A stretch of 64,000 bases of DNA from Candidatus Gottesmanbacteria bacterium (GCA_963711735.1 CAVQFA010000003.1:82971-146970), one strand, 5' to 3'; shown: positions 4,937 through 17,006, counted from the first letter of the stretch. Translations and numbers: made by a program. The notes: generated by a model from the sequence alone, not told the origin.

Positions 4937-5924
4937 ATGAAACGGGACTGGATTTACGTTTTACGTGGTATAGCTATCCTTAGTGTTGTGATCGGACATG
5001 CGATAGATATGAATCCGGAATATCCGTTGCTCTGGTTTTGGAATCATCTTGCTTTTACAATCCCCTGGTTTATTTTTCTTTCGGGCACTGCAAACGCCTT
5101 GTCATTACTTCGACGTCAACAACAAGTTTCGTATATCGTCATCATACATAACGATGGTGGGCCGGATTATAAAAATTTTACCGGTCTATGCGTTGGCAGT
5201 GTATGCTGCATTAACACTGTACGCCTACCCAATTCTTGATCTTCACGATTATCTGTACAGAGTATTGTCATTTCAAACGCAACCGACGTTTTATTTTGTA
5301 TTGTTAATTATTGAACTTTATATTCTGTTCCCCCTGCTTTATGCATTATCCGGTTTCAGCAAAAAAATTCCGGGCAGATTATTAACACTGGTATTAGTTG
5401 GGTTCGTTGCATACATCTGGCCGTTTCTCAAAGCTCCATATCCGTTTGTTCCGGCGGGCATAATCATCGGAGGAGGCTTCCTGTTCATTTTTTATGCCGG
5501 AATGCTTTATGGACGATACGGTATTAAGATGCCTAGACACGGCTGGATAGCGGTGATCTGCGGTATGGTTATAACTGATTATCTGTATATAGTTTACGGG
5601 AAAAATTTAGATCACACCGCTCTTTTTTTTGTATTACTCCAGAGTTGGTCGCTGTTTCTACTGTTTGTGATAAAGAGATTAATAACTTTTATCCCAAAAG
5701 GTGTATCTGCATTCCTGGCTATAATCGGACGTCAATCTTTATATATTTTCCTTTTTCATTATGCGGTTATACATTATCTTTTTGAAAACCGACCTCATAC
5801 TATTATGCTTTTTGTCACAACCTATATAATCGGTATTACCTTACCGATTATTTTTGGTGTTTTGTATGAAAAAATATATAAGTGGATAAAATACCGGTCA
5901 TTACCCATTTTTACTGTCCGATAA
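4937..5924 (+). CDS. Acyltransferase 3 (OafA-like) family membrane protein, interrupted by a +1 frameshift near 5095-5135
   Basis: N-terminal part RDWIYVLRGIAILSVVIGH...FIFLSG is in frame 2. The continuation RIIKILPVYALAVY... is in frame 0 (track ORFs 4937-5239 and 5049-5924). Confidence 0.65.
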
Positions 5925-7388: not shown

Positions 7389-8264
7389 TTACATTTCGCG
7401 CAGATTACCGGCTTTCTTCCAGCAATCGTAGTCAGCATAGAAGATGGCAATCGGCAAGCGAGGTGCAGATACTTGAGTGAACCAGCCGATGAACGGACGG
7501 TTGAAGACTAGTGGCCTCGGCTCATCCAGATCAATACCCTTGCGCATTGCCATACCAGTTGCGACTTTGACCCGGGCACCTTCCTTGTTGATCCGCAACA
7601 TGAACTGTTGATACGCTTCACTGATGTACCAGTACTGATCACTTTCATCGTGAGTATCAGCACCAACCAGGAAGCTGATGTCAGGCTTCATGTTGAAATC
7701 CACTTCGGGCACCTGTACGGTCGAGATGTTGCCAACGCGAGAATGACCCTTTGACATCGTTGTAAACGCGATGCGAATCAGATCCATCGGGCTGGTTGGC
7801 GTCGTATTGGGCATGGTGAGCCAGAGCTTGTCACCGCTTTTAGTCAGCAGACTTGCAACCTGCGAACCTTCCACAGTGAAAACAGTGTGTCCACCTTGAG
7901 GGATTTCAAACCCAGCGTGTGTCCGGTTGTCGCGGCCGTAAATCTCGCAAAGCGCAGCCTGCTTGAGCCATTCGATGAGCATGTCAAGGATCGAAACAAC
8001 GCCGATGCCCTCGAGTGGTCCGTTGAACATGGGATCAAATCCGCTGTCCGTGAGAAAACGGTTCAGTTCTTCCCAGTCAGTGGACGCTTTGGCTTTGAGA
8101 TTTGCCAGTGCACTCAACATGCCTTTGTATTGGCGGTAAAGCTCAAAGACGACGATCTGATTCTGGTTCTTGGTACCCCACTTCCGATCTGCACCCAGGT
8201 ATGCGTTTTCCAGAGTATGCAACGCATGGAAGATGGTTGTTACGTCGATCGCTTGTGTAGCCAT
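7389..8264 (-). CDS. Serpin-like protein, short form (paralog A)
   Basis: 291 aa. The C-terminal part is collinear with serpins: the breach-like LILLLKWKV, the hinge EGARVKVATGMAM (cf. EGTEAAAAT), a reactive-centre-loop-sized spacer, then FNRPFIGWF...PRLPIAIF (cf. FNRPFLFxI...PLFMGxV). The ~100 N-terminal serpin residues are missing. Confidence 0.5.
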   Translation of the reverse strand: MATQAIDVTTIFHALHTLENAYLGADRKWGTKNQNQIVVFELYRQYKGMLSALANLKAKASTDWEELNRFLTDSGFDPMFNGPLEGIGVVSILDMLIEWLKQAALCEIYGRDNRTHAGFEIPQGGHTVFTVEGSQVASLLTKSGDKLWLTMPNTTPTSPMDLIRIAFTTMSKGHSRVGNISTVQVPEVDFNMKPDISFLVGADTHDESDQYWYISEAYQQFMLRINKEGARVKVATGMAMRKGIDLDEPRPLVFNRPFIGWFTQVSAPRLPIAIFYADYDCWKKAGNLREM

Positions 8265-8323
8265 ATGATTCTCCTTGTTGTGTCGAGATAATCAGATTAA
8301 ATTGAATTGGTGAATGTCATCGC

Positions 8324-9187
8324 TTACATAAGATCACCCGGATCAGTCCAGTTCTCCTGGGTGATGTGTGCGACGAGCAGCGGTTTAGCGAGACCGTCGC
8401 GGACAATCCAGACCAGGAACGGTCGGTCGATGACGAGGTCGGGCTTCGACAAAATCGCGAATTCAAGCGTGATAGCGGCAGCTGCAGCGCTTTTGAGTAA
8501 CGCGCCCTTATCGTTCATCTTGAAGATCGTCTGCTGCTTCGCCTGGCTGATCCTCGCCTGCTGACCTGTGTTGGCGGTAGTCTCCATGTTCAGGAGCCAA
8601 CTAATATCGACAAGCTGATCGAGATCGACCATCGGGAAAACCAGGTCACCAAACTCCCTGTTGTGCTCGAGGGATGCCTGTATCTGCTCGACGTAGCTCA
8701 CGAGGTCGAAGTCAGTCGGTGGTGTCTCCATGACAGTCATAAAAACCTGATCTCCCGACTTGGTGGCAATGCAGACGACCGGTTTGGGGTGTTTGACGGA
8801 CGTATAGTAGGACATACCATTTTCCATCCGAACACCGTCATAGGTTTTACCATCTGCTGCGCGAAACTTCTCCTTCATGCCCTCCACCTTCCATTTGAGT
8901 AGTAGGATCAGGGTGGCAGCAACGCCGAAAGTGTCCTCGTCGAAATCGTCCAGCGTGATGCTGAAACCGCGCTCCTGCAAGAAACGGTTAATGTCCTCCG
9001 CACTCCAACTCGCAATCGACTCGATCTCCGAGATGCCCAGAACCTCATTGCGTGTGCGGTCGAAAAACTCAGTCAGGAAGCGCGTCTGCATCTGGTTCTG
9101 GGGACGCCAAACGCGACCCTCACCGATGATGTCATCAGCCTTACGGATAGCAGCTACGATAGGATGCATACATACTGTAGTACTCAT
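8324..9187 (-). CDS. Serpin-like protein, short form (paralog B)
   Basis: 287 aa, a paralog of 7389-8264. LILLLKWKVEGMKEKF, VFPMVDL, the hinge KGALLKSAAAAAIT and IDRPFLVWIVRDGLAKPLLVAHITQE match the serpin C-terminal signature. An AAGGAG RBS sits 8 nt upstream of the ATG. Confidence 0.5.
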   Translation of the reverse strand: MSTTVCMHPIVAAIRKADDIIGEGRVWRPQNQMQTRFLTEFFDRTRNEVLGISEIESIASWSAEDINRFLQERGFSITLDDFDEDTFGVAATLILLLKWKVEGMKEKFRAADGKTYDGVRMENGMSYYTSVKHPKPVVCIATKSGDQVFMTVMETPPTDFDLVSYVEQIQASLEHNREFGDLVFPMVDLDQLVDISWLLNMETTANTGQQARISQAKQQTIFKMNDKGALLKSAAAAAITLEFAILSKPDLVIDRPFLVWIVRDGLAKPLLVAHITQENWTDPGDLM

Positions 9188-9582
9188 GTCAAATCTCCTT
9201 TAGAATCGTGAAAATAGTGAACGAAAAAACAAACGTTTGTTTGCCATCCGACCACTTGGTCGCCTCAGCTATTTGGTCCTGTACGGGGACACAAAATCAG
9301 TTTTCTCCTATTCTGATTTGTTTGTTTTAGCTTTGGTTGATGGCTATCCGAACACGATATACATCATGCCCGTGTAGCCACCAACCAGCTTCAGAAACTG
9401 GAGAGAAATAAGTAGTTCGTAGGGAGACGATTCCGGCACAACCTATTCCATATATCCAGTCACGAAAGAGCCTCACTATTGAGACGTTTCATATCTTGAT
9501 AATACAGACGGTCATACCGGTATAACTCCCTACGAGTATATTCAGTTGTTAATGTGCTATCACTTAAGAAACAAAAAAATGA

Positions 9583-9617
9583 CCCGGAGCATAACATTTG
9601 CTCCGGTTTATTTTTTT
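9583..9617. terminator. Bidirectional intrinsic terminator-like hairpin (CCGGAGCA-TAACATT-TGCTCCGG flanked by an A-run and a T-run)
   Basis: Seen directly in the sequence. It lies inside the 730-nt noncoding gap. Confidence 0.45.
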
Positions 9618-9654
9618 ATATCACTAAATAAATCGACGTTCTTTCTTCTTCTTA

Positions 9655-9705
9655 TCCCCTTTCGCTCTTTTGAGCTCATCAGTACGGACATACATCCGTA
9701 AAGGG
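9655..9705 (-). ncRNA. Hammerhead ribozyme motif (type III topology)
   Basis: The minus strand reads ACCCU-U-[UACGGA UGUAUG UCCGUA]-CUGAUGA-[GCUC AAAA GAGC]-GAAA-GGGG. The conserved CUGAUGA and GAAA cores are present. Stem I is 6 bp and directly precedes CUGAUGA, stem II is 4 bp with a tetraloop, and stem III is ACCCU/AGGG(G), which places a U-H cleavage site directly before stem I. Confidence 0.6.
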
Positions 9706-9922
9706 TGGTGCGATTTATATATTTTGTCTTGTGAGACTGATATAAAGGTTCGCACCGACCTATAAACTTCAAGAGTATAAAAACCGCAATTTTTCCCCGA
9801 CCTAGATTTGGTCAGTTACCTTTCAATCGCCGTCCGGCGAGCCATATTATGGCGAAAGGTCTGCTAGAGGGGGATCCCCGCAGTGTTAGGGGACACTAAT
9901 TCAGAAAATGTCTTTTCTATAG

Positions 9923-10711
9923 CTAGTTATCAGACTGTTTCTGAAACTTCGTCATGCGCTCTGCGACACGCTGTTCGATCGGTATCTCAGGGCTTTTAGC
10001 AAGAGATTCCAATTCGGCGGTAGCTTTGAGTTCGGCGCGAACTTTCTCTGCCTGTTCGGTCCAAACATCTGCTTCAGCTTCAGCGTCTTTGACCAAGTCG
10101 TATGCCTTCTTGATCTGTTCGTCGTTGCCATCAACGCCGAGTGTCGAAATCAGCTTGTTGGCATCGCCAACGCTTCGCGCTGTGCGCGACCGGACATCGA
10201 TCTCGTTGACCTGGCGGGCGCGAACGGCGATGATCTTTGCCAAATCCGTAAGAGCTGCTTCGACGTCAGCTTCCTTAGTTTTGATCTTGTTGAATTCAGG
10301 CTGAATGGTATCCACGCGGCCTTGAGCTTTAGCAATTTTTTCTTCGGCTTTCGTGACCAAATCAGCATTCTGAATGCTTGCCGCGTTATCAGCTGCGGCA
10401 TTGTATTTGGCAACATCAGCCATAGCTTCTGCCAAATCGTTTTGCAGGCGACGTCGGACTGTCTTGATTGCAATCAGGTCGGCGTTACCACGTGCTTGTT
10501 TGATTTCAGCATCGCGCTTAGATTTCAAGGCGCGATCCTTTGCGCTGTCCAGCAAACGCTGAGCGCGGGTTTTCAGCCCGAAAACGCGTACGCGGATTGT
10601 CTCCGCTAAAGGGTCAGGCGAGAGTGCACACCAGGCGGCAATAATCGCCCCAATGACCACAGCCAGTAAGATAGTTGTTCCAGTAGACATTTGATATACT
10701 CCTTCTTGCAT
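9923..10711 (-). CDS. Membrane-anchored coiled-coil protein, PspA/IM30-like (tentative)
   Basis: 262 aa: an N-terminal TM helix followed by a long A/Q/R/E/K-rich coiled coil. ...VRARQVNEIDVRSR...KDAEAEADVW resembles the conserved PspA segment ending in AEAEA. Confidence 0.4.
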   Translation of the reverse strand: MQEGVYQMSTGTTILLAVVIGAIIAAWCALSPDPLAETIRVRVFGLKTRAQRLLDSAKDRALKSKRDAEIKQARGNADLIAIKTVRRRLQNDLAEAMADVAKYNAAADNAASIQNADLVTKAEEKIAKAQGRVDTIQPEFNKIKTKEADVEAALTDLAKIIAVRARQVNEIDVRSRTARSVGDANKLISTLGVDGNDEQIKKAYDLVKDAEAEADVWTEQAEKVRAELKATAELESLAKSPEIPIEQRVAERMTKFQKQSDN

Positions 10712-10788
10712 TGATTTAAAAGGTTTTGTCTATGATTTGTTTGATCAGATTTTATTTTCTTTGGGTTATATCTCTTTTACTATCCTCC

Positions 10789-11400
10789 TTATGATGCCAA
10801 TGCTAGGATCAAAGTCGCAATTTTCACTACCACGACCATGATGACATGGCTATTGTTGTCCTTCATTGTCACCCAGTCACGGAATTCATCCATGTTGTGT
10901 ATAGAGAAAACGAACCGTGCAATCAGGATGGTGATACAGTCCCCGACAATCTCGCCCAAGGCTCCTCTGGTCATGATGCCATACAGATACTGATCAAAGG
11001 AAGCTCCTTTTATCGATACGATCAGTGCGAGAGTTAGGAAAATCAAACCACCCAGGATAATCGCGTGACTGTCATTCCGTGGGCTTTCGAATTCTCGCTT
11101 TATTTGACGAATTGGGGTATCCAACACATGGTAAAAAATCACCCATGCCCGCACAAAAACGATACCGATCACGATGCCCAATCGGATAAAATACTCCCCT
11201 ATCCAACCGGGGATATTCCCGAATGTTTCCGTCACCACATGTGTTGACGGAGCCAAAACATATTGAGCAATGGCAAATACTAAAACCATAAGGCTCCACC
11301 AAATAATCGTATATAACGTTCCGCTGATACCTCTAGTCGGAAAATGCACATGTTTCTTAATGCTGGCGCTCATAAATCGCTCCTTGATCTTATGCTGCAC
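10789..11400 (-). CDS. Integral membrane protein (about 5 TM), function unknown
   Basis: 203 aa with hydrophobic helices. Same strand and operon-like spacing as its neighbours. Confidence 0.5.
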   Translation of the reverse strand: MQHKIKERFMSASIKKHVHFPTRGISGTLYTIIWWSLMVLVFAIAQYVLAPSTHVVTETFGNIPGWIGEYFIRLGIVIGIVFVRAWVIFYHVLDTPIRQIKREFESPRNDSHAIILGGLIFLTLALIVSIKGASFDQYLYGIMTRGALGEIVGDCITILIARFVFSIHNMDEFRDWVTMKDNNSHVIMVVVVKIATLILALAS

Positions 11401-12160
11401 GCAAAATCTTGCCGCAGTACTGTTGAATGGTCATTCCTAGTGCATGACCCATCTTCCAAACACGATCCGCTCCAGCCTTGACGTTTTCCAGATATATGAT
11501 GTTCTTCTGGGTGTCTTCGGCCAACATGTATTTCACCATCATGCCGTTTGGAAGGTGACTTGTTCCATCTGTTTGTTCATACCGAAGATATCCGACGTCT
11601 AGTACGGTCAATTTCTGACCATTCCACTTAAACGAATAACTCCGTGGTACTTGATCATATTGTTCGCTGAAGGTTACACCGGCTTCATCAAACATGGAAG
11701 CGGATTCGCCCTCTAACACTATCGCGTTTCCTTTGTCGAACCAAAACCAGCCATCCGGACGTTTTATCAGCATAATTGTGCCGTCCAGAATAAAAACCGG
11801 CCAGTTTTCTCCCCGATCAGTGAAATTACGATCAGAACGATTTAGCGCGCACAATTGTCCCCTGCAGGTAACAACACGTTCTTTTCGTTCAAGAACATTA
11901 ACGCTATCTAAGTCGATCTCTACCGTCTCTCCTGAACGCAAATCTTCGAATTGCTTCTCTATAGGTGCGTCATAAGGAATACGGCTCATGGATGCCTTTG
12001 TTTCATTGGCAACCTGAACTAGAACGTTTGTAGATTTTCGAACAGTAGTGATCCATTCTTTCAAATCACGAATATGTTGTGGATTCGAGAGTAGGTAGCC
12101 GAGACCAGCCACCAACAATATCACAAACCCAAATATTACGAGTATTGTTCCTGTTATCAT
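11390..12160 (-). CDS. Membrane-anchored hypothetical protein (possibly DUF4178-like)
   Basis: 256 aa with an N-terminal TM and a soluble domain containing WPVFILDGTIMLIKRPDGWFWFDKG and YSFKWNGQKLTVLDVGYLRY. The family assignment is from memory only. Confidence 0.4.
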   Translation of the reverse strand: MITGTILVIFGFVILLVAGLGYLLSNPQHIRDLKEWITTVRKSTNVLVQVANETKASMSRIPYDAPIEKQFEDLRSGETVEIDLDSVNVLERKERVVTCRGQLCALNRSDRNFTDRGENWPVFILDGTIMLIKRPDGWFWFDKGNAIVLEGESASMFDEAGVTFSEQYDQVPRSYSFKWNGQKLTVLDVGYLRYEQTDGTSHLPNGMMVKYMLAEDTQKNIIYLENVKAGADRVWKMGHALGMTIQQYCGKILRAA

Positions 12161-12183
12161 GCTTTAAGCTCCTTATTTTTGAC

Positions 12184-13482
12184 TTACCATCCGTCATCAC
12201 TGCCCCAATCGTCGCTGGAATCCCAACTGTCATCACTGCCCCAATCGTCGCTGGAATCCCAACTGTCATCACTGCCCCAATCGTCACTGGAATCCCAACT
12301 GTCATCACTGCCCCAGTTGTCATCGCCGCCCCAATCGGAATCAGAACTCCAGTCAGTATCAGATCCTTCGTCATCAGAACTACCTGAAGAATCAGAATCT
12401 GAATTCCAATCCCAGCCTGAAGATGAACTCGGCGAATCATCATTATCAGAATTGCTAGGAACAGAAGTTGGTGGTGGAGGTTCAGCAGCAGAAATGCTCA
12501 TGTTTGCATAACTCACACATGAATTAACATGTGTAGTCACACTTGAAAAATCCTGAGATATACATGACTGATATGCTAAATCTCCTTCACTAATAGCAAG
12601 GTTATATTTGCTTTGCGCGACGATACTGTCATAAGCACCGATCAGTTGTGAGGCTGCAAGATTAATGGTGCTTTGACAATTTGCGATTTGTGATTGTGCT
12701 TGGTCAGCGGAGACATTGAGTTGTTCAGCGGTTGTTCTTGCTGATTCAACTTGATTTGCAACTTGTTGTGCTTGATCGTATGCTACAGGTTTGTCCACAA
12801 CGCCATCCGGAACGATCACTGTAAGTGTCGTCCGTGCGACATTAAGGCCTATTGATGCTTGGTTGAGTATGCTTAATGCGGATTCGTATGATAAAAGCGT
12901 TGATGACCCACATAAAGCTTTTGCAGGCAGGGTATTAATGTATTGTCGTCCTTCGTCAATGCTTGCCTGAACCCTATCGATATAACCACTGTCGATTTCT
13001 TGGGTTTTTTGATTAAGGATGTCATAGTATCGCTGATCCGTAGTACCTGGAGGACCAAGGATTTGAATAATTATCAGTTCTGAATTATTTAGAGCTGCAT
13101 CTGCTTCTTCCCAGTACTGACGTGCTAAGGTGCGGTTATTGTTTTGTAGCGCCTGCACACCAGATGCCCAGATATTATAGATTGTTCCATTGTTCTCTAG
13201 ATTGTCACGGGAAGTAGACAGTTTCTGCTCAAATCCTTCAGACCAATGTCGAGCAAATAGAGCTGCGTTTTGATCGAATTCATTCTCCGCGTTAGGAAGC
13301 ATTTGAAGCAGCGTTGTTCTGCGTACCTCAATATCTGCGAGCTTATTAGTTAAGTCACGTAAGTCCGCTGCACCAAACGCATTTATAATGAGTCCAATAG
13401 CTATGAGAACGATTCCCAAAGCGGCAACCCATGCCCACTTACTGTTGTCGACCTCGTGTCGACGATAGTAATAAACAGACAT
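12184..13482 (-). CDS. Membrane-anchored protein with a C-terminal acidic Trp-rich tandem repeat (DDWGSDDSWDSS)n
   Basis: 432 aa. The N-terminal TM is KWAWVAALGIVLIAIGLIINAFG. The C-terminus is encoded by 36-nt tandem DNA repeats. Confidence 0.55.
   Translation of the reverse strand: MSVYYYRRHEVDNSKWAWVAALGIVLIAIGLIINAFGAADLRDLTNKLADIEVRRTTLLQMLPNAENEFDQNAALFARHWSEGFEQKLSTSRDNLENNGTIYNIWASGVQALQNNNRTLARQYWEEADAALNNSELIIIQILGPPGTTDQRYYDILNQKTQEIDSGYIDRVQASIDEGRQYINTLPAKALCGSSTLLSYESALSILNQASIGLNVARTTLTVIVPDGVVDKPVAYDQAQQVANQVESARTTAEQLNVSADQAQSQIANCQSTINLAASQLIGAYDSIVAQSKYNLAISEGDLAYQSCISQDFSSVTTHVNSCVSYANMSISAAEPPPPTSVPSNSDNDDSPSSSSGWDWNSDSDSSGSSDDEGSDTDWSSDSDWGGDDNWGSDDSWDSSDDWGSDDSWDSSDDWGSDDSWDSSDDWGSDDGW
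12191..12330. repeat. Intragenic tandem repeat: 36-nt unit (CCAATCGTCGCTGGAATCCCAACTGTCATCACTGCC) about 3.5 copies
   Basis: Near-perfect direct copies seen in the sequence. They encode a 12-aa D/S/W/G repeat on the minus strand. Confidence 0.8.
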
Positions 13483-16911: not shown

Positions 16912-16934
16912 AAATATTTAATATATGTCGTTTG

Positions 16935-17006
16935 TGCGCCTGCTTGGAATCGGACCAAGTACATCCACTTTATAAGAGTGGCGTTCTACCACTGAACTAC
17001 AGGCGC
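16935..17006 (-). tRNA. tRNA-Ile (anticodon TAT)
   Basis: Minus strand reads GCGCCTG-TA-GTTC-AGTGGTA-GAAC-G-CCACT-CTTATAA-AGTGG-ATGTA-CTTGG-TCCGATT-CCAAG-CAGGCGC-A. All stems are perfect, and positions 34-36 are TAT. Confidence 0.85.

Follow-up and report, generated by a model that had tools for sequence, protein, structure and literature searches.

Two adjacent genes in a 64,000-nt stretch of Candidatus Gottesmanbacteria DNA (GCA_963711735.1, CAVQFA010000003.1:82971-146970; hereafter, the window) encode unusually short proteins that sequence comparison and predicted structure support as true serpin homologs with a serpin fold. Mini-serpin A (window positions 8324-9187, minus strand, 287 aa) is the upstream gene of the pair and mini-serpin B (7389-8264, minus strand, 291 aa) its downstream paralog. 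BLASTP aligned the two proteins over 270 aa with 27% identity (E 2e-25), which confirms both the pair of adjacent open reading frames (ORFs) and the paralogy that had been noted in a preliminary description made from the sequence alone. A third copy of the family was looked for in the window, but none was found. The sequence motifs quoted in that description were all recovered: LLLKWKV (aa 93-99 in A), the two hinges (KGALLKSAAAAAIT in A and EGARVKVATGMAM in B), RPF and PLLVAHI. In both proteins the hinge and loop are followed by (D/N)RPF and then by PLLVAHI / LPIAIFY.

Serpin homology and the shortened N-terminal region

For A and B taken singly, the serpin signal is weak but rightly placed, and it becomes clear once relatives are added. 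Against the Pfam serpin family PF00079, A scored 22.7 bits (aa 207-275 vs positions 300-367 of the 370 in the hidden Markov model, HMM) and B 19.6 bits, with about 70 C-terminal residues alone matching in either protein. Both scores miss the whole-protein gathering cut-off of 27 bits, which is an operational threshold and not a biological criterion. Some relatives lie above it (P0257 with 34.7, P0269 with 32.8, P0283 with 29.9 and P0006 with 29.8 bits), and 45 of the 49 aligned members match the model (best E 1e-10). Thus, the PF00079 match anticipated earlier was obtained for the family, whereas A and B alone stayed below the cut-off. Single-sequence phmmer searches against the PDB reached serpin C-termini at E~0.1 only. 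The family profile recovered PAI-1 at E 1e-9 (profile 126-276 vs chain 211-376) and 125 serpin chains at E<1, all of them co-linear; the CrmA entries 1M93, 1C8O and 1F0C were among the PDB matches, and the alignments of SerpinB3/B4 begin at profile position 98. An hhalign comparison of 81 family sequences with three reference serpins yielded 95% probability (E 3e-8); these references were entered by hand, and the C-terminus of PAI-1 agrees with the alignment from the PDB search. With a 49-sequence profile and the single alpha-1-antitrypsin sequence, the C-terminus alone was aligned.

Breach Trp, shutter, hinge (E-x-G), reactive-centre loop (RCL), s1C, s4B (RPF) and s5B are co-linear in the family. 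The succession from the hinge through the variable loop to s4B and s5B follows that of the Pfam HMM (292-367 of 370), PAI-1 and alpha-1-antitrypsin, so the serpin C-terminal order proposed in the preliminary description stands in all three alignments; the residue-for-residue match to alpha-1-antitrypsin does not, the loop being longer. Altogether, the retained C-terminal two-thirds comprise s3A with the breach Trp, sheets B and C, s6A, s5A, hinge, loop, s4B and s5B. With the PROSITE serpin signature PS00284 written as [LIVMFY]-{G}-[LIVMFYAC]-[DNQ]-[RKHQS]-[PST]-F-[LIVMFY]-[LIVMFYC]-x-[LIVMFAH], A has a match (LVIDRPFLVWI at 251), B departs from this version of the pattern at one position (Gly260), and 91 of 273 family members agree with it. 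The mini-serpins also carry a conserved extra tail, W.(N/D)PG.L, at the C-terminus.

AlphaFold2 (AF2) models of A and B show the serpin fold with its three sheets, as the earlier proposal had led us to expect. The full canonical architecture (hA-hI, s6B, s1A and s2A within a core of ~350-400 residues) is not present in either protein. A resemblance to serpins by chance or convergence could appeal to the weak single-sequence E-values and to residues 1-104, which alone retrieve no serpin from the PDB; in view of the profile matches and models described above we consider it excluded, with a probability of practically nil. Two further matches, a weak one to the SAM domain (polyhomeotic) at aa 56-108 and one to ProQ_C, were absent from the profile and fold searches and were discarded as chance.

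Family and serpin numbering differ by an offset of 85-92 all along from the invariant Trp99 to the C-terminus (87 at profile position 98, SerpinB4 residue 185; 85 at position 126, PAI-1 residue 211; 92 at position 275, Pfam HMM position 367). Because this offset is nearly constant from W99 onward, the ~87 missing residues all belong to the part ahead of strand s3A, where the ~185 residues of normal serpins are replaced by a compact N-terminal region of ~98 residues. The earlier figure of about 100 missing N-terminal residues was roughly right. Ahead of s3A, the AF2 models contain three to four helices, a single strand of six residues and one bridge residue, compared with six helices (hA-hF) and three strands in canonical serpins.

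Since a profile of residues 1-104 searched against the PDB matched no serpin and returned spurious designed-repeat proteins only, we infer the element-by-element correspondence of this region from one greedy hhalign run against the three hand-entered serpin sequences. Residues 8-21 would represent hD, 32-45 hE and 55-60 s1A, SAEDINRFLQERGFSI would correspond to the helix F segment AKKQINDYVEKGTQGKI with N67 paired to Asn158 of alpha-1-antitrypsin, and residues 86-99 to s3A with W99 paired to Trp194, while s2A would be largely deleted and hA, s6B, hB and hC absent. In A, the helix-F-like INRFLQERGFSI motif and strand s3A, which ends in the invariant breach-like Trp99, together occupy aa 67-99 (8889-8987, minus strand). 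N67, F75, G88 and W99 show no or almost no variation in the family; the same is true of W27, N31 and Q34, for which no counterpart exists among serpin motifs. An internal deletion reaching from hD to hF, with hA and s6B kept, was dropped because motif spacing and the constant offsets disagree with it. The spacing of 32 residues between IN.FL...GF.I and W99 matches the 36 between helix F Asn158 and Trp194.

Proteins ~90 residues shorter than canonical serpins, with individual Pfam scores under the cut-off, might be taken for truncated remnants of ordinary serpin genes of ~380 aa, i.e., for pseudogenes, mis-called starts or assembly fragments. However, both genes possess good Shine-Dalgarno sites, read directly from the sequence as AAGGAG at 9195-9200 for A and at 8271-8276, within the 59-nt A-B spacer, for B (both minus strand). 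In-frame stop codons stand immediately upstream, TAA at 9200-9202, five codons before the ATG of A, and TGA at 8292-8294, ten codons before that of B, so an N-terminal extension of either protein, which the preliminary description had raised, is ruled out. Moreover, homologs of equal length, with an N-terminus conserved from Met1, number in the hundreds, the extensions of the rare longer relatives were examined and proved unrelated, with no serpin N-terminus among them, and the models of A and B are confident and compact. The truncated-pseudogene reading is excluded; we leave it a very slight residual probability.

The family is large. A profile search that covered all 1.84 billion cluster representatives matched 966 of them at E<=1e-30 and, with the looser limit of E<=1e-10, 1,570; the best 150 were almost all 275-310 aa long and aligned end-to-end. 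Homologs numbered 93 for A and 63 for B, nearly all with 280-305 aa. According to the record annotations, members occur in the candidate phyla radiation (CPR: Saccharibacteria, Uhrbacteria, Woesebacteria), in DPANN (Woesearchaeota, Pacearchaeota, Nanoarchaeia), in Ktedonobacteraceae (Chloroflexi), in Acidobacteria and in metagenome-assembled genomes (MAGs) labelled Gammaproteobacteria. Most sources annotate them as "hypothetical", and JGI calls a few members "Serpin". No match to A, B or the four genes upstream of them was found in PHROGs (phage protein families), PADLOC (known anti-phage defence systems) or NCBIfam, and tblastn detected the family neither in the deposited phages of INPHARED nor in the plasmids of PLSDB. 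Two loci lie in huge-phage-like regions with many small same-strand ORFs. One is on an IMG/VR contig of 434,688 bp (L029), where the neighbours include three tRNAs, NAD synthetase and an EF-like gene; the other (L004) has NAD synthetase, NAPRTase and tRNA-His guanylyltransferase (Thg1) nearby. Some family members (P0084, P0087, P0269 and P0239) carry extra domains or extensions: a ribosomal L7/L12 C-terminal domain follows the mini-serpin in two proteins (aa ~310-375), a WGR domain stands N-terminal to a partial mini-serpin in one, and one member is extended at the N-terminus by a Cys/His-rich, Zn-finger-like segment. In the literature searched, no account of mini-serpins was found, the one apparent match being the author name "Serpinsky". 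In the broadest serpin phylogeny (PMC8233489), sequences falling more than 25% below the median length were discarded, so mini-serpins would have been filtered out.

Hinge, loop and possible function

The hinge, the reactive-centre-like loop and the s1C-like segment span aa 226-256 in A (8420-8512, minus strand, DKGALLKSAAAAAITLEFAILSKPDLVIDRP) and aa 227-257 in B (7494-7586, minus strand, KEGARVKVATGMAMRKGIDLDEPRPLVFNRP). In A, the hinge Gly and the Pro of RPF lie 29 residues apart (family mode 29, range 25-32), compared with 26 by our own count in alpha-1-antitrypsin and PAI-1; the putative mini-serpin loop is of RCL length, typically 1-4 residues longer (27-30 vs 26). Among 273 members the hinge Gly at P15 (Gly228 in A) is conserved in 272. 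P17 is Glu in 62%, P14 Ala in 93%, P13 Arg in 70%, P10 Ser in 71% and P9 Ala in 89%, with Val or Ala at P12, Lys, Glu or Gln at P11, Val, Thr or Ala at P8 and Ala or Gly at P7. All even positions, which are buried upon insertion, are small or hydrophobic and the buried/exposed alternation is retained; the family hinge has the amphipathic pattern of a strand able to enter sheet A. The consensus of inhibitory serpins is Glu at P17, Gly at P15, Thr or Ser at P14 and Ala, Gly or Ser at P12-P9. P17, P15, P10 and P9 of the mini-serpins fit this consensus, whereas P14, P12 and P11 deviate. In the B clade GARVKVATG is nearly invariant, with the beta-branched residue Val at P12 and P10. Residues 239-248 of A show high entropy and length variation in the family, and the conserved PKPDLVI(D/N)xPF stands directly after this variable loop. 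Thirteen residues past the hinge Gly, 63% of members have Arg or Lys; A has Leu241 there and B has Lys242, hence the paralogs present different candidate cleavage sites.

The AF2 models of A and B are both loop-inserted. The predicted local distance difference test score (pLDDT) exceeds 90 along the inserted strand (228-241 in A, 229-242 in B) and is below 50 at 244-249 of A; the remaining four models per protein score lower. A fold search matched the models best to cleaved or latent serpins. AlphaFold cannot distinguish a metastable native state from a relaxed ground state. Judged by these models, the loop state is like that of latent PAI-1 (PDB 1C5G) and of RCL-cleaved serpins; latency in PAI-1 is a slow transition away from the active metastable state. 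The non-inhibitory serpins ovalbumin, HSP47, PEDF and maspin differ in being full-length and in having loops that do not insert, whereas the mini-serpin loop is predicted to be inserted.

Compared with canonical serpins, then, the mini-serpins have ~87 residues fewer, all upstream of s3A, Ala instead of Thr/Ser at P14, a loop longer by 1-4 residues, the extra W.(N/D)PG.L tail and no signal peptide that could be seen. The smallest well-studied serpin is CrmA of cowpox virus (341 aa), which lacks only helix D and parts of neighbouring elements and keeps hA, s6B, hB and hC. The mini-serpins are ~50 residues shorter than CrmA, and their loss spans the N-terminal region as a whole. Inhibition is proven for CrmA, whereas for the mini-serpins it is a prediction.

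The most likely reading, to which we give an even chance, is that the mini-serpins inhibit proteases by the serpin trap mechanism; it is favoured because the E-x-G-small hinge is kept, the loop is variable and the s1C-like segment is conserved. A target protease would attack the exposed, variable bait loop, and the conserved Ala/Ser-rich amphipathic hinge would then enter sheet A as strand s4A, trapping the protease. For a metastable native state, a stressed-to-relaxed transition and covalent trapping, the relaxed state of the models is indirect support. The bait sequences differ (...ITLE/F... in A, ...MRKG/I... in B), and the pair would cover two intracellular proteases. Neither an N-terminal hydrophobic segment nor a signal peptide was seen in A or B, and the lack of the former suggests a cytoplasmic location. 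The targets are plausibly proteases of phage-host conflict, since the family occurs in phage and variable-island contexts. For A and B, the metastability of the native state as well as the inhibition of proteases, the choice of targets and any part in conflict are inferred. A more far-reaching version, in which the mini-serpins are a minimal stressed-to-relaxed trap of ~290 residues without helices A-C and most of s2A, serve ultra-small bacteria, archaea and huge phages within cells as a fast-diversifying, horizontally exchanged protease trap in virus-host conflict comparable to CrmA, and form A/B pairs of two specificities, is possible but rather doubtful.

Several observations weigh against inhibition by trapping. 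No protease gene was consistently linked to the family in 26 loci, and a proteasome-family gene and an AAA ATPase lie upstream at one locus only (L001). P14 is Ala and not the inhibitory Thr/Ser, P12 is often Val, P13 and P11 are charged, and ARVKVATG in the B hinge resembles a strand that is permanently part of the core. Several other surface segments are at least as variable as the loop. Helix B, over which the loop of canonical serpins slides as it inserts, seems to be lacking in the mini-serpin according to the hhalign mapping. Finally, confident models with the loop in sheet A, obtained for the uncleaved chain, could indicate a constitutively relaxed, non-inhibitory protein. Such a latent-like scaffold, with hinge and loop as a permanent strand of sheet A, would exert a binding, scaffold or chaperone role through the N-terminal W27, N31, Q34 and IN.FL..GF. 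It would agree with the high pLDDT of the inserted strand in both models and their best matches to cleaved or latent serpins, with the near-invariant GARVKVATG and its beta-branched Val at P12 and P10, with P14 Ala and with the lack of a linked protease; W27, N31 and Q34 are conserved independently of serpin motifs, and binding roles are suggested by the L7/L12 C-terminal and WGR domains that are fused to some members. Yet conservation extends to the s1C-like PKPDLVI, which a permanently latent protein would carry as an unstructured strap on its surface, and the hinge keeps the E-x-G-(small) pattern and Ala/Ser richness of mobile hinges. The inability of AlphaFold to tell a metastable from a relaxed state tempers the weight of the models, and the four lower-scoring models per protein may reflect alternative conformations. 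Overall, a permanently relaxed scaffold is the main rival reading, conceivable though on the unlikely side.

A and B might also form a hetero-oligomer by loop-sheet or strand exchange, each completing the incomplete sheet A of the other, so that the functional unit would be the pair and not the monomer. Serpins are known to polymerise through loop-sheet linkage, A-type and B-type genes are adjacent at at least five independent loci and in both orders, the intergenic spacer is short (59 nt), and both proteins are missing a portion of the stretch from which s1A and s2A normally derive. However, most loci are single-copy, one pair consists of two A-type genes, and each monomer models confidently alone as a closed fold, which makes this arrangement distinctly improbable.

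Genomic context and probable horizontal transfer

The family consists of stand-alone genes that move horizontally among CPR, DPANN, some Chloroflexi/Acidobacteria and huge phages and are often tandem-duplicated. In the window, the pair has a G+C content of 0.519 vs 0.446 +/- 0.027, which places it in the top 0.2% of 1.8-kb segments and makes it the most G+C-rich 1.8 kb. At third codon positions (GC3) the values are 0.67 and 0.60, compared with 0.33-0.35 in neighbouring genes. The G+C elevation reported in the preliminary description is therefore real and strong, and this anomaly suggests a recent horizontal acquisition of the pair. The single-strand block mentioned there is likewise present and comprises six consecutive minus-strand ORFs (7389-13482).

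A terminator-like G+C-rich hairpin with T-runs on both strands (9584-9606) lies between the pair and a PspA-like gene upstream, from which it follows that the pair is probably its own bicistronic unit. The same 735-nt gap upstream of gene A contains a hammerhead-like motif (9654-9708, minus strand). What had been described as an adjacent ribozyme motif is a sub-threshold match only, with 29.2 bits to Rfam Hammerhead_3 vs a gathering score of 48.5 bits (E 0.0018 for a 2.8-kb search). It combines a CUGAUGA core, a GCUC-AAAA-GAGC stem II, GAAA, a 6-bp stem I hairpin, a 4-bp stem III and a C-U-U cleavage triplet, and its minimum free energy fold is a three-way junction (z -2.1). No hammerhead was found beside the family at the gathering threshold in 10 other loci scanned, and the idea that it belongs to a mini-serpin module was rejected.

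The gene directly upstream (9923-10711, minus strand) encodes a PspA/IM30-like coiled-coil protein and is itself G+C-rich (0.512). A PspA/IM30-like gene also directly precedes the mini-serpin at L006 (6136-6933), which is on an unrelated 525-kb contig; this adjacency, seen in the window and at L006 only, could be a loose association or chance. Three consecutive genes follow further upstream (10789-13482, minus strand), encoding proteins of 432, 256 and 203 aa, none of which matched Pfam, PHROGs or PADLOC; the 203-aa protein is membrane-protein-like.

An all-against-all BLASTP of ORFs from 26 loci revealed no recurrent partner gene. Some loci lie among housekeeping operons; others have restriction-modification, toxin-antitoxin (PIN/MazE, HipA) or STAND ATPase genes, type IV secretion pilins or Bro-N nearby. 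An A-type gene adjoins a B-type gene in the window and at L007, L008, L009 and L026, with both orders represented, and the pair at L012 consists of two A-type copies. Pairing is thus frequent but not required, since 14 A-type and 2 B-type loci are single-copy. A Saccharibacteria MAG has a B-A pair (L008, 4004-8163, on the same contig as L014) inside a ruvC-ruvA-ruvB cluster that is otherwise of the usual kind; the insertion separates ruvA from ruvB and illustrates the pair moving as a unit. On a Terriglobia contig (L001, 5600-9972), genes for a proteasome-family protein (188 aa) and an AAA ATPase (469 aa) precede the mini-serpin on the same strand, and a 362-aa unknown protein follows it. This is the sole locus at which a peptidase, and hence a candidate target, adjoins the family.

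Two other features of the window are recorded here. A tRNA-Ile gene at 16934-17006 (minus strand) has the anticodon TAT, which is unusual, as bacteria normally read AUA via a lysidine-modified CAT tRNA. An Acyl_transf_3 gene at 4937-5924 (plus strand) is seemingly split by a frameshift: a 100-aa ORF (4937-5239) begins with the acyltransferase-3-like N-terminus RDWIYVLRGIAILSVVIGH, and a 291-aa ORF (5049-5924), overlapping it in another frame, matches Pfam positions 71-324 of 326. It is either a pseudogene or a sequencing error.

A possible minimal serpin fold and serpin distribution

Serpins are the textbook example of a metastable protein machine, and the fraction of the ~380-residue fold that is needed for their spring mechanism is a question of structural interest. 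A natural family without the ~87 residues ahead of s3A provides a direct test of the minimal fold of this spring, as according to hhalign the loss would include helix B, the normal sliding surface of the inserting loop. If the mini-serpins inhibit proteases, the minimal serpin would be much smaller than previously assumed; otherwise, they show to what use a relaxed serpin scaffold is put. The family also alters the picture of serpin distribution, as it is abundant in CPR, DPANN and huge phages, mostly under the annotation "hypothetical". Its mobile, compositionally foreign and island-like contexts make it a candidate player in phage-host conflict.
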